From: a virus
Virus record (IMG/VR): IMGVR_UViG_3300050821_015011
DNA length: 52,671 bases
Strand: one strand, 5' to 3'
Position numbers and translations under genes: made by a program. The notes below the pieces were generated by a model. It searched no databases. It was not told the origin of the DNA and worked only from the letters and a program-made list of their open reading frames with translations. Of this stretch, positions 4,989 to 34,108 are shown one piece after another (the stretch's first letter is position 1; the number at the start of each line of letters is the position of its first letter).

Positions 4989-5017
4989 ATAGTACGTGGC
5001 GATTAGATCCCTGTCTA
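4989..5017 (-). promoter_or_regulatory. leftward sigma70-like promoter (TAGACA-N17-TACTAT), motif-2 class
   Basis: Minus strand reads ggTAGACAgggatctaatcgccacgTACTATcgcacacATG. The -10 element ends 7 nt before the ATG at 4981, implying a leaderless transcript of the operon that ends with mvp. Confidence 0.55.
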
Positions 5018-5050
5018 CCTAACCATTTATTTCGCGAAGTAACACTATTA

Positions 5051-5078
5051 TTGTCAAGTCATGTTCAATGGTTATAAT
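5051..5078 (+). promoter_or_regulatory. rightward sigma70-like promoter TTGTCA-N16-TATAAT
   Basis: ttgtca 5051-5056 and tataat 5073-5078 in the AT-rich divergent intergenic region. Flanked by inverted ATTGTCAA copies near 5049-5057 and 5100-5108, a possible operator. Confidence 0.5.
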
Positions 5079-5164
5079 CATTATTGAGAACACAATCCAG
5101 TTGACAATGCGTCGCGTCAACAGGCATGGTTCGCGGCAGCAAGAATTCCCCTCTGAGGAGAGAC

Positions 5165-5785
5165 ATGAGCACTAAGTCAGCACAAACACGACGTAGCGTT
5201 AGTATATCCGGCAAGTTGTATGAAGCGCTGCGCTCGTATGGTAAGCCGCTTGATCTGTCGATGAGCGAGATTATCGAAGAGGAGATGCGTCGCTTTCTGA
5301 AGATGCCATCCCGGGCTGATCAGGTATCAGTTGCCAAAGTAAAGGAGGTGGAAAAGACTCCAGAAGCGAAGCAAGTCGTGGCTGTTCCGGTGAAGAAGCC
5401 GGCAATTAAGCCAGCTCCAGAGCCGAAGCCGGTCAGGATGGATAAGCCCTGGGTCAAGGCAGGTTTCAAGACTCGCGAGGAGTGGAGGGCGGACCAGCGG
5501 AAGAAGCCCAAGCCTCCCACCGACCTTGAATTCAACAAGATGGTTGACGAGAAGCTGGAGGAGAAGAAGGTCAGACATACGCCGAGCTTCAGTCCGTTCT
5601 ACAACAAGAAGCCGAAGAGGCAGGCGCTAGATCCAGCTCTCAACCCACGCGGCGTTATCGAACCTCCGAAGGTACTGGAGAAGCCAGATACTTCAAAGTT
5701 CGACGAGTGGGAAAGGGAACAGCCCAAAGCGAAGGTCGAATCCATCGAGAAGCGTGTGCCGCAGTCGAATATCGTACTTCTCTAG
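5165..5785 (+). CDS. ribbon-helix-helix (CopG/Arc-like) DNA-binding protein with long Lys/Pro-rich tail
   Basis: N-terminus MSTKSAQTRRSVSISGKLYEALRSYG..SMSEIIEEEMRRFL has the beta-strand plus two-helix RHH pattern. GAGGAG Shine-Dalgarno 5 nt upstream. First gene after the divergent promoter. Confidence 0.55.
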   Translation: MSTKSAQTRRSVSISGKLYEALRSYGKPLDLSMSEIIEEEMRRFLKMPSRADQVSVAKVKEVEKTPEAKQVVAVPVKKPAIKPAPEPKPVRMDKPWVKAGFKTREEWRADQRKKPKPPTDLEFNKMVDEKLEEKKVRHTPSFSPFYNKKPKRQALDPALNPRGVIEPPKVLEKPDTSKFDEWEREQPKAKVESIEKRVPQSNIVLL

Positions 5786-5814
5786 TCTCGACAATCATTA
5801 CACCCTGCTTTTAC

Positions 5815-6099
5815 ATGATTCGGGTGACACTCCCGCGCTCAATCCTTCTCAGCATACTGCTCTTAGCCTGCACTGAAGAACACCATGAGGGGATGGTAAG
5901 CCACCCGTGTTTCTCTAATGGAACATGTAACGATGGGCTCACGTGTATCACATGGTCGACCTGGTCCAAGAACGATGGCAGGTGGATCACAACGTACAAG
6001 TACACGCCAGCTAAGACTGAAGGACTCGAAGAAGCCTCAGCAAGCATCTGTGCGGATACGAAGACGATGAAGATCAGCGACATTAGGAAAGGGCAATGA
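5815..6099 (+). CDS. small Cys-rich lipoprotein (signal peptide plus LLAC lipobox)
   Basis: MIRVTLPRSILLSILLLAC.. gives a hydrophobic signal with lipobox, then several Cys. Internal Met of the 5707-6099 frame, chosen to avoid overlap with the RHH gene. Confidence 0.4.
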   Translation: MIRVTLPRSILLSILLLACTEEHHEGMVSHPCFSNGTCNDGLTCITWSTWSKNDGRWITTYKYTPAKTEGLEEASASICADTKTMKISDIRKGQ

Positions 6100-6467
6100 G
6101 GGTGTGGTTGGATGATAGCCGTCCACCACCGCCAGGATATGACTTCGTGGCGCGCACAGCGGCAGCCGCGATCAAGATGCTGGCGTCGGGCCTTGTCAAG
6201 GAGATCAGCCTTGATCACGATCTATCTCTGTGTGGCGAGCATTGTATCGAGGATAGCAGCGGCAAGGTGAGATGTGTCCTAGGTAGACCAATGCTCGACT
6301 TCTGCCCATGCCCTTGCCATGACACGGGTTACACCGTGGTCTGCTGGATGGAAGAGAACAAAGTCTGGCCAGCGACAGTACGTATACATACCTCGAATCC
6401 TGTTGGACGATCGAAGATGGAAGCGGCGATCTTGGCATCGGCGCCTCCGGGAACGTACAAGCGATGA
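6096..6467 (+). CDS. hypothetical Cys-rich protein (123 aa)
   Basis: ATGA overlap with the upstream stop. CPCPCH and CGEHC motifs. Confidence 0.4.
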   Translation: MRVWLDDSRPPPPGYDFVARTAAAAIKMLASGLVKEISLDHDLSLCGEHCIEDSSGKVRCVLGRPMLDFCPCPCHDTGYTVVCWMEENKVWPATVRIHTSNPVGRSKMEAAILASAPPGTYKR

Positions 6468-32235: not shown

Positions 32236-33005
32236 TGATCCTCGACGCTCATACCCACCTTGGGAAGAAGCGGATCATCGCCAAACCACCCGACCTCATT
32301 GCATCCATGGACTCGGCGAAGATCGACAAGGCTCTCGTTTTCGCCGGTAAGTTCACAGAGACTGCGACTGAAGATCTTCTCACCCAGATCGCGCCCTATA
32401 ACGGGCGTCTCTTCGGTATCGGGTCCTGGTCGCCCAAGAACGATGAGCCGACGCCGGAACGGATCGAACAGCTTCTTCGGGAGGGCAAGATTCACGGGAT
32501 GAAATTCTATCCTGGCTACGAATACTTCTACCCTCATGATCATGTCCTACACCCGTACATGGAGCTGCTGGTCAAGTACGATCGACCTGCGATCTTCCAT
32601 TCGGGTGACACTTTCAATGGCGCGAATGGTGCGCGCCTGCGGTTTGCTCACCCGCTGGAGATCGACGACCTATCAGTAGAATTCCCGAAGCTGAAGATCA
32701 TCATCGCTCACCTGGGCAATCCGTGGGTGATTGACGCCGCAGAGGTCTGCTTCAAGAACGAAAACGTCTATGCGGATTGTTCAGGCTTTGTCTATGGCGA
32801 CTTCAAGGACAATGACTTCATGTTCTTCAGAATGGCCGTCAACGAGTTCAAGAGGGTTGCCGGCGGCCAAGACAAGGTCATCTTCGGAACCGACTGGCCG
32901 ATTTCCCATCAACAGGACTACATCCAAGCTGCGATAACCTGCTTCGACGACTGCGGCAAGGTGATGGGCACTCGGGCAGCGGAGCTGTTTGGTATCAGCA
33001 AATGA
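32235..33005 (+). CDS. amidohydrolase-2 (TIM-barrel metal-dependent hydrolase) family protein
   Basis: N-terminal MILDAHTHLG (HxH), IIIAHLG, and C-terminal VIFGTDWP aspartate motif. Confidence 0.65.
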   Translation: MILDAHTHLGKKRIIAKPPDLIASMDSAKIDKALVFAGKFTETATEDLLTQIAPYNGRLFGIGSWSPKNDEPTPERIEQLLREGKIHGMKFYPGYEYFYPHDHVLHPYMELLVKYDRPAIFHSGDTFNGANGARLRFAHPLEIDDLSVEFPKLKIIIAHLGNPWVIDAAEVCFKNENVYADCSGFVYGDFKDNDFMFFRMAVNEFKRVAGGQDKVIFGTDWPISHQQDYIQAAITCFDDCGKVMGTRAAELFGISK

Positions 33006-33023
33006 ATCAGAGGGGAGACTGAC

Positions 33024-33548
33024 ATGGGAATGACTGCCTACGCACACGTCATCGTTGGCATCCGTGTTTTCCGTCGAGACTTCATGGTGCCGGAAGGATC
33101 GGTCTGGCGTTGTGCTAATTCGCATACCCGCGAAGAAGGGAAGACGGACGCTTTTTGCTCGAAATGTGGCGCTCGCTTCAGCTCACATTCCGTCGAAAGG
33201 CCAACCGAAGGACTGATTCGGTATGCTCGAAGCATCGGAGGAGTTCCTGAAAACGTCTTCATTGATATGTGTGACGAAGACGACGACCAGGACGGCTTTG
33301 GCATCTGGCCCGTGCATCAGGTACAGACCTCTGAAGACGATGACGAGGATTCTCCCCTTGCGATCGGCTTCAAGATCTCTCCGACAAGGGACATCATGTC
33401 TGGTTCCGGCGGAACTACCCCCGCTGGTACTGAGTTCGAGAAGATCACGCAGATGACGATCGAGATCATTGGGGCGGCGAGAATGCTTTGCATTCCGGCT
33501 AAACGCCAGAATGTCGAAGTCTTTTGCTGCGTCTACGCCAGCTACTAG
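33024..33548 (+). CDS. Cys-containing acidic protein (174 aa)
   Basis: CANSH..CSKCG zinc-ribbon-like segment, acidic DEDDDQD stretch. Confidence 0.45.
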   Translation: MGMTAYAHVIVGIRVFRRDFMVPEGSVWRCANSHTREEGKTDAFCSKCGARFSSHSVERPTEGLIRYARSIGGVPENVFIDMCDEDDDQDGFGIWPVHQVQTSEDDDEDSPLAIGFKISPTRDIMSGSGGTTPAGTEFEKITQMTIEIIGAARMLCIPAKRQNVEVFCCVYASY

Positions 33549-33549
33549 C

Positions 33550-33858
33550 ATGCTTGCCGGCGCCTACACTCTCGACTTGTACTGCGACAACCCGGACTGT
33601 CCCGATGATCGTGGTAACCCGTGGCAATACTTTGCAGAGCTGGGGACAACGGCAAGACGTGAAGCTCGTGATGCCGGCTGGATCATCACTCCTGACAAGC
33701 AGATCTGTCCGAAGTGCTCAGGTAAAAAGAAGAAGCGCCACAAGCTCTCGAAAGGTTCTATGGCATCTGACAAGATGATCGCCGAGTTAATCGCAGATGG
33801 GGCCGAGGCTGTGTCGGTGACCGAGATCTGGCGCAGATCGAAGATGAAGCTTCCCTAA
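33550..33858 (+). CDS. zinc-ribbon protein (about 102 aa)
   Basis: CDNPDCPDD..CPKCSGKKKK. ATG 2 nt after the upstream TAG. Confidence 0.4.
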   Translation: MLAGAYTLDLYCDNPDCPDDRGNPWQYFAELGTTARREARDAGWIITPDKQICPKCSGKKKKRHKLSKGSMASDKMIAELIADGAEAVSVTEIWRRSKMKLP

Positions 33859-34076
33859 ATCGGCGTGTAACATGGTGGTGGCTGGGTCCAGTCAGCCCTC
33901 ATCCCGCACTGGCACTTCCCGCACACCGGACAGTATCTGTGCTTCCCCCTTAGCACTTCGATGTGGAACGTGTATAGATCTGGCCGGAACCAGACAAATA
34001 CATAGGTCTCATAGCAAAATCGGCAGAATTCATCGACTACCCATCGCTTAACTGGGGAGGGTGGAACGCCAGCCAT
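33855..34076 (-). CDS. Cys-rich small protein (73 aa)
   Basis: CRFC..CPVCGKCQC. Lone minus-strand ORF, so lower confidence. Confidence 0.3.
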   Translation of the reverse strand: MAGVPPSPVKRWVVDEFCRFCYETYVFVWFRPDLYTFHIEVLRGKHRYCPVCGKCQCGMRADWTQPPPCYTPI

Positions 34077-34098
34077 AGATGGATCATACCACGCAAGA

Positions 34099-34108
34099 GC
34101 TGGACAAT
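34099..34108 (+). promoter_or_regulatory. motif-2 (GCTGGACAAT) -35-like element
   Basis: Conserved 10-mer 29 nt before the ATG at 34137. Confidence 0.4.

Follow-up and report, generated by a model that had tools for sequence, protein, structure and literature searches.

A conserved -35-like block ahead of start codons in an uncultivated 94-kb element, read as a class of putative leaderless promoters

The stretch of DNA analysed here (IMG/VR record IMGVR_UViG_3300050821_015011; 52,671 nucleotides, referred to as the window) is part of an uncultivated metagenomic contig of 94 kb (ERZ27253726 k141_1782673, 94,087 bp) and raises the question of how the transcription of its small genes is started. 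A sequence-only reading of the window had noticed a short word, here called motif-2, a little upstream of several start codons, and had proposed that it belongs to promoters whose transcripts begin at the start codon itself. Do the copies of this word form a true class of sites, do they act as promoters, and would the resulting mRNAs lack a leader? On the evidence given below motif-2 is probably the -35 box of sigma-70-family promoters which start at the start codon and yield leaderless mRNAs.

Sequence, number and position of motif-2

All the copies that had been listed for the window carry the motif, the one at 5012 with its core only (GGTAGACAGG). Seven copies of the 10-mer and the core-only copy are found in front of genes in the window, all of them oriented towards the downstream gene. 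A ninth copy (GCTGGACAAT) is located about 8 kb past the window in a further 9.1 kb of the same contig (L166), which brings the sequence seen to 62 kb; the ATG of a gene for a 68-aa protein follows it 30 nt downstream. When these nine sites, eight from the window and the L166 copy, are aligned on the hexamer, the sole conserved block is aGCTRGACAAT (10-11 bp), the flanks being unrelated; the other conserved feature is a set of weakly conserved -10 columns. The hexamer is TAGACA or TGGACA at all nine sites, a match to TTGACA in five of six positions, and outside the hexamer the G is present at 9/9, the C at 7/9, the A at 8/9 and the T at 8/9 sites.

The block is strongly enriched. GCTRGACAAT occurs seven times in the window, where 0.16 occurrences are expected by chance (none of 300 dinucleotide shuffles matched the count), and GCTAGACAAT with at most one mismatch gives nine matches for 2.2 expected, a number reached by none of 100 shuffles. 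The whole arrangement, TRGACA-N16-18-[TC]A...T-N5-9-ATG, is found six times for 0.15 expected, again in none of 300 dinucleotide shuffles. The bare hexamer TAGACA is not enriched in the window (10 for 13 expected), so that the signal consists of the 10-11-bp block and of its position. The sites are as follows, with spacers and gaps in nucleotides.

4979..5019, minus strand: P-5012; GGTAGACAGG, core only (5019-5010), spacer 17, putative -10 box TACTAT (4994-4989), gap 7, ATG (4981-4979)
17894..17933, plus strand: P-17894; GCTGGACAAT, poor -10 box CGAAGT without A at position 2, ATG 17931, 29 nt past the hexamer
22491..22532, minus strand: P-22523; GCTAGACAAT, spacer 17, putative -10 box TAGTGT (22507-22502), gap 8, ATG (22493-22491)
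24373..24414, plus strand: P-24373; GCTAGACAAT, spacer 18, putative -10 box TACCAT (24399-24404), gap 7, ATG 24412
25413..25452, plus strand: P-25413; GCTAGACAAT, spacer 17, putative -10 box CATTCT (25438-25443), gap 6, ATG 25450
27129..27168, plus strand: P-27129, promoter-like; GCTAGACAAT, spacer 17, putative -10 box CAGTGT (27154-27159), no start codon at the predicted +1
29182..29221, plus strand: P-29182; GGTAGACAAT, spacer 17, putative -10 box TAGGGT (29207-29212), gap 6, ATG 29219
34099..34139, plus strand: P-34099; GCTGGACAAT (TGGACA), spacer 16, putative -10 box TAGCAT (34123-34128), gap 8, ATG 34137

P-5012 heads an operon of eight genes, the last of which encodes a homologue of the vault protein (18-2558). 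The product of the gene behind P-17894 is a DUF4177-like protein of 70 aa, that behind P-22523 a biotinyl/lipoyl-domain protein of 73 aa, and P-25413 overlaps the 3' end of the preceding gene 24946-25437.

The motif lies at a fixed 27-30 nt before the ATG. The distance from the end of the 10-mer to the ATG is 27 nt at 17894, 25413 and 29182, 28 nt at 5012 and 34099, and 29 nt at 22523. With the A of the ATG taken as +1, the hexamer covers -35 to -30 in each fitting site and the 10-mer block spans -39 to -30. The spacer had been given as 17 nt, which is correct for most sites; it is 18 nt at 24373 and 16 nt at 34099, a range of 16-18 nt. The -10 box keeps an A at position 2 and a T at position 6 in seven of the nine sites (TACTAT, TAGTGT, TACCAT, CATTCT, CAGTGT, TAGGGT and TAGCAT), the A being absent from 17894 and from the L166 copy. 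A weaker copy that had been proposed near 30151 does not belong to the class, its ATG being only 18 nt past the hexamer.

The public gene calls on copies of the contig begin at 4981, 22493, 25450, 29219 and 34137, and an identical 70-aa protein on record starts at 17931, so that for six genes the start agrees with the predicted ATG. At 24373 the geometry holds with the second in-frame ATG (24412, 29 nt from the end of the 10-mer); the first one (24403), which the public call uses, lies 9 nt upstream of it, falls within the -10 box and is too close to the motif (20 nt). Two of the proteins leave no space for an alternative start, since in the 73-aa protein the Pfam biotinyl/lipoyl domain extends from residue 5 to residue 69 (profile positions 3-73 of 73) and the DUF4177-like match in the 70-aa protein also begins at residue 5. 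The fitted starts in the window are ATG in seven of seven cases, 6-8 nt past the -10 box, and no Shine-Dalgarno sequence is seen; a gap of this length makes one impossible there. A Shine-Dalgarno-like sequence precedes 57 of the 111 called genes, which indicates that the host uses ordinary ribosome-binding sites for internal genes.

At 27129 the motif and the CAGTGT box are present as described, but no start codon follows and the next gene begins 283 nt further on. The TAG of this copy doubles as the stop codon of gene 26756-27133, and behind it a 283-nt stretch without a credible open reading frame (ORF) extends up to gene 27417 (cytidylyltransferase-like). This stretch (27139-27416) has no Rfam match and nothing unusual in its fold (z-score -0.33), and may be a long leader or encode a small unannotated product. 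Over the window as a whole, every Rfam family stayed below its gathering score.

Two further matches were considered and set aside. An exact GCTGGACAAT at 7816-7825 on the minus strand lies antisense within the 5' end of gene 7789-8154, opposing the promoter of that gene, which is of the motif-1 type described below; it has no -10 box and is probably a chance occurrence, an antisense role being conceivable. The match at 44292 (minus strand, one mismatch) is situated within the called gene 44121-44723, also without a -10 box, and is probably due to chance.

The promoter reading and its alternatives

In the proposed mechanism an RNA polymerase holoenzyme would bind the -35 block together with a degenerate TAnnnT -10 box 16-18 bp downstream, and transcription would start 6-8 nt past the -10 box, at or within 1-2 nt of the A of the ATG. 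Leaderless translation would thus concern the gene that heads a unit, and the genes downstream in it would rely on ordinary Shine-Dalgarno sites. Judged by their geometry the motif-2 genes are most likely leaderless. That the sites fire, the exact point at which transcription would start and the sigma factor that would read them are what we infer from the sequence. The proposal of a -35/-10 arrangement with +1 on the start codon agrees with the 6-8 nt gap, with the gene calls and with a footprint in a related element.

This element, L002, is the closest relative found, an 85-kb contig with 61% identity in the ATPase. Its site at 7213 on the minus strand is the ortholog of P-5012 and is located ahead of the same gene (protein MFKR...). 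Between the two sites AGGTAGACA and CCACGTACnATC..CACATGTTCAA are kept, corresponding to the putative -35 box, the putative -10 box and the ATG, and the intervening 12 nt have diverged; this pattern is a promoter-like footprint. Two further TRGACA sites of L002 precede a called gene, 30-31 nt from its ATG; a plausible -10 box accompanies each, and the GC/AAT flanks are lacking.

Several observations weigh against motif-2 being the -35 box of leaderless sigma-70 promoters. A scan with the generic sigma-70 consensus showed no enrichment anywhere in the window, the conservation of GC and AAT around the hexamer exceeds what sigma region 4 usually needs, and relatives at about 46% ATPase identity do not have promoters of the motif-2 type. 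The -10 box is poor at two sites, 17894 (CGAAGT) and the L166 copy (AGTAAT), and the copy at 27129 has no start codon, so that the class is not strictly leaderless. An archaeal promoter with TATA box and TFB-recognition element (BRE) was ruled out, since Shine-Dalgarno sequences are frequent and an AT-rich box is lacking at -26.

Near-consensus sigma-70 promoters are confined to one place in the window, a divergent 'switch' region at 4982-5165 with TTGTCA-16-TATAAT (plus strand, 5051-5078), TTGTCA-16-AATAAT (minus strand, 5107-5080) and a further TTGACA. This region adjoins a gene for a ribbon-helix-helix-like regulator (5165-5785), and its -35 boxes are conserved in L002. The four positions flanking the hexamer of motif-2 are nearly invariant in the window and not in L002. 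Because of these invariant flanks, and because the near-consensus promoters do not occur outside the switch region, an additional specificity determinant is proposed for motif-2; the data suggest a particular sigma factor, or a factor contacting the flanks of the -35 box, which would distinguish motif-2 from motif-1.

Such a factor leads to an alternative which we consider unlikely, namely that the 10-mer serves in the first place to bind an activator or repressor which the element encodes and which acts over the -35 region, sigma recognition of TRGACA being secondary, much as in the T4 MotA box or a class II activator site. It would account for the 10-11 conserved positions where six would be expected and for the weak -10 boxes, and the restriction of near-consensus TTGTCA-16-TATAAT to the switch region suggests that the host enzyme has a different optimum. 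The ribbon-helix-helix-like regulator is one candidate for the factor. The other is encoded nearby (49742-50506, minus strand), a protein of 254 aa in which two helix-turn-helix segments resemble sigma region 4 (Sigma70_r4_2, 27 bits for a cutoff of 25.7); it has C-terminal zinc ribbons and no region 2. This protein may be a transcription factor of the element and nothing ties it to motif-1 or to motif-2; its single-sequence structure model had a predicted local distance difference test score (pLDDT) of 42, is unusable and lends the alternative no help. The motif itself is asymmetric and single in each promoter, lies exactly at -35 to -30 with five of six positions matching TTGACA, and is reduced to its hexamer in L002, all of which speak against a regulator site. 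Pfam families resembling MotA or AsiA were likewise missing from the scanned ORFs and from the Pfam hits precomputed for the public gene calls. Nor did the 62 kb show any protein with sigma region 2, whether a sigma factor of the extracytoplasmic function (ECF) type or another.

Other explanations do without a promoter at the motif. If transcription started further upstream, GCUAGACAAU would lie in an untranslated leader of about 38 nt and could serve genes devoid of a Shine-Dalgarno sequence as a processing or translation signal, in keeping with the fixed distance to the ATG; we regard this as improbable, since the A2 and T6 between motif and ATG are kept at promoter spacing, the footprint in L002 has the form box, spacer, box, and the copy at 27129 exists without a start codon. 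RNA downstream of that copy has no stable fold and no Rfam match nearby, and no complementarity to the 3' end of 16S rRNA, taken in its usual sequence, was seen. Least probable of all is a word with no role in expression, either left over from repeated sequence (the boundary of a duplicated cassette or a recombination site, for instance) or produced by chance or by coding. The one-mismatch copies within genes (7816 and 44292) and the TAG at 27129 being also a stop codon would fit it; against it stand the seven copies for 0.16 expected, flanks that are unrelated outside 11 bp, the orientation of every fitting copy towards a downstream gene at 27-30 nt, and the retention of one copy in a relative at 61% protein identity. 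The sigma-70-type promoter starting at the start codon is thus the reading that we retain as probable.

The element and its possible host

The window has a GC content of 56%, small genes and no tRNA genes, and intrinsic terminators are not enriched in it. A second assembly of the contig measures 94,114 bp, nearly the length of the first, and has different end points, and the window overruns the ENA contig by 1,494 bases. Together these observations indicate an element that is probably circular or circularly permuted and of about 94 kb. Searches of the window's ORFs against Pfam and PHROGs recognised MVP, a HerA-like ATPase, NUDIX, response-regulator receiver, biotinyl, cytidylyltransferase, amidohydrolase, TPR and AAA families and almost nothing else. 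Capsid, portal and terminase families were not recognised in the 62 kb. A megablast search with 12 kb found nothing in cultured phages, tblastn with the ATPase gave no match in phages and only remote matches of cellular type in plasmids, and a scan of viral contigs with the ATPase gave no relatives. Given the lack of capsid, portal and terminase families and of an ATPase match in cultured phages, the label 'virus' is unproven.

The host had been proposed to be a lineage such as Actinobacteria or Deinococcus-Thermus, for which we found no firm support. The product of the vault-protein ORF (18-2558, minus strand), 846 aa long, is homologous to the eukaryotic major vault protein (MVP_shoulder 5.5e-25, Vault_3) and is nearest, at 54%, to proteins from metagenome-assembled genomes (MAGs) of Myxococcota. 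Among the ATPases of the genome collection the nearest, at 46%, comes from a short contig that was binned as Planctomycetaceae; next come Deltaproteobacterial, Myxococcales and Planctomycetota chromosomal copies (38-42%). These taxonomic signals point weakly to Myxococcota or Planctomycetota; the homologues of the amidohydrolase carry no taxonomic information. The TAGnnT -10 boxes resemble the consensus of high-GC Gram-positive bacteria, and an actinobacterial host is thus conceivable. In one Myxococcota MAG the vault gene starts behind a Shine-Dalgarno sequence, in DNA of about 70% GC, and is uninformative on leaderless use. A TAnnnT peak before the ATG was sought in fetched loci of Myxococcota, Planctomycetota and Hyphomicrobiales, whose 38, 11 and 211 usable genes are too few for this purpose. 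The literature on TAGACA promoters in Myxococcus and on leaderless transcripts in Myxococcus and Planctomycetes yielded nothing usable.

Motif-1, known promoter systems and related elements

Two promoter classes, both producing leaderless mRNAs, had been proposed for the element. The second class exists, is distinct from motif-2 and far more abundant; the leaderless form would apply to only about half of its copies. Motif-1 is GTAAK-N16-CGTAYAAY, with 25 strict copies in the window from 7755 to 51373, and examples are:

28110-28138: motif-1 copy
35340-35368: motif-1 copy
49421-49449: motif-1 copy
37126, minus strand: motif-1 copy
38011, minus strand: motif-1 copy

An ATG follows 4-6 nt downstream in 14 of the 25 copies, and other copies have leaders with ribosome-binding sites of the GGAGG type (e.g. 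9521, 14285, 26362 and 40577). These Shine-Dalgarno leaders indicate that the conserved boxes of the element act on DNA as promoters and are not translation signals. In 14 of the 25 copies the upstream ORF ends on the TAA of GTAAT, which produces 30-nt junctions of stop, promoter and start. Copies of motif-1 and motif-2 are interleaved in common co-directional gene arrays (24-36 kb). With its CGTA -10 box, its 16-nt spacer and its tight adherence to the consensus, motif-1 looks like a promoter for an ECF sigma factor. ECF promoters have AAC in the -35 region, CGT in the -10 region and a spacer of 14-17 bp (PMC5758882). Motif-1 shares with them the CGTA and the tight consensus and differs by having TAAT/AAAT in place of AAC, whereas motif-2 has neither the AAC nor the CGT hallmark and is not of this type.

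A sigma-70-type promoter abutting the start codon is a well-established principle, met here in an unstudied element. In the leaderless promoters of Actinobacteria and Deinococcus-Thermus some 6-8 nt lie between the -10 box and the start codon (PMC3160421, PMC12340547). Like these, motif-2 sites combine a TAnnnT box just before the ATG with the lack of a Shine-Dalgarno sequence and affect promoter-proximal genes; in the known cases the -10 box is informative and the -35 box weak or absent, whereas motif-2 has a strong -35 block and a degenerate -10 box. What is unusual is that the -35 block rather than the -10 box is conserved, and that this class coexists with an ECF-like one in an unstudied family of elements.

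Many transcripts of the Thermus phage P23-45 are leaderless. The phage has a -10/-35 class and an extended -10 class of promoters, of which the -35-dependent class can be switched via sigma region 4 (PMC5758890). Both cases concern a mobile element with two structurally distinct promoter classes for the host polymerase, one of which requires the -35 box. The phage and the present element are unrelated in sequence, the second class of the latter is bipartite and ECF-like, and no gp39- or gp76-like proteins were identified.

Middle promoters of phage T4 consist of a MotA box at -30 and a sigma-70 -10 box, and their transcripts have leaders. Motif-2 likewise has a highly conserved box of 9-10 bp at or over the -35 region followed by an ordinary -10 box; its box differs in matching TTGACA in five of six positions at -35 to -30, no MotA or AsiA homologues were seen among the scanned ORFs and the precomputed Pfam hits, and the motif-2 sites are unlikely to be middle promoters of the T4 type. 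The stoperators of Cluster A mycobacteriophages have no fixed distance to starts, and the start-associated sequences of Cluster K, which take in the ribosome-binding site, are found 3-8 bp from the start. These are also short asymmetric repeats with one orientation or a set distance from starts, but motif-2 is placed 27-30 nt upstream of the start codon, from which a -10-like box separates it, and falls in neither group.

If the promoter reading is true, about nine motif-2 and at least 25 motif-1 promoters give a readable map of the transcription units for about 110 genes, gene starts can be fixed without a model of the ribosome-binding site, and the element becomes a test case of -35-dependent and ECF-like classes coexisting and both feeding leaderless translation. 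Motif-2 is also a handle for spotting close relatives and, given the promoter consensus of a host, for assigning that host. A broader picture, which we put forward tentatively and hold to be rather doubtful, is that of an undescribed and environmentally widespread family of apparently extrachromosomal elements of 70-200 kb with a HerA-like ATPase, in which nearly every short gene unit would stand behind a uniform promoter cassette and most first genes would be leaderless. In this picture the element itself would supply the reader of motif-2, a dedicated sigma factor or a region-4-like factor, and motif-2 would form an 'extended -35' class. The promoters would make up a programme of three tiers, with the consensus sigma-70 promoters of the switch region first, motif-2 second and the ECF-like motif-1 third.

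Cassettes of comparable build are present in related elements. The L002 version of motif-1 is GTAAT-N16-CGTA (five or more copies), and two other relatives have the bipartite cassettes GTGAAAAT-N15/16-TGTATTAGA (L086, 16 copies) and CTGAAAAA-N15-GTTGTAGGT (L093, about 16 copies). In all three the lineage-specific cassette sits 3-5 nt before the ATG, which suggests promoters co-evolving with a dedicated factor. Among the 80 loci taken from the genome collection, most of them MAG contigs, none carries motif-1. The clade at about 46% identity (L085-L110, contigs of up to 199 kb) contains in addition a palindrome, GGAAAACTCnnGAGTTTTCC, at 8-24 copies per 10-20 kb (e.g. L086 8474-8491 and 12950-12967). 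It is absent from the window and present once in L002, upstream of 6785 on the minus strand, and is probably an operator.

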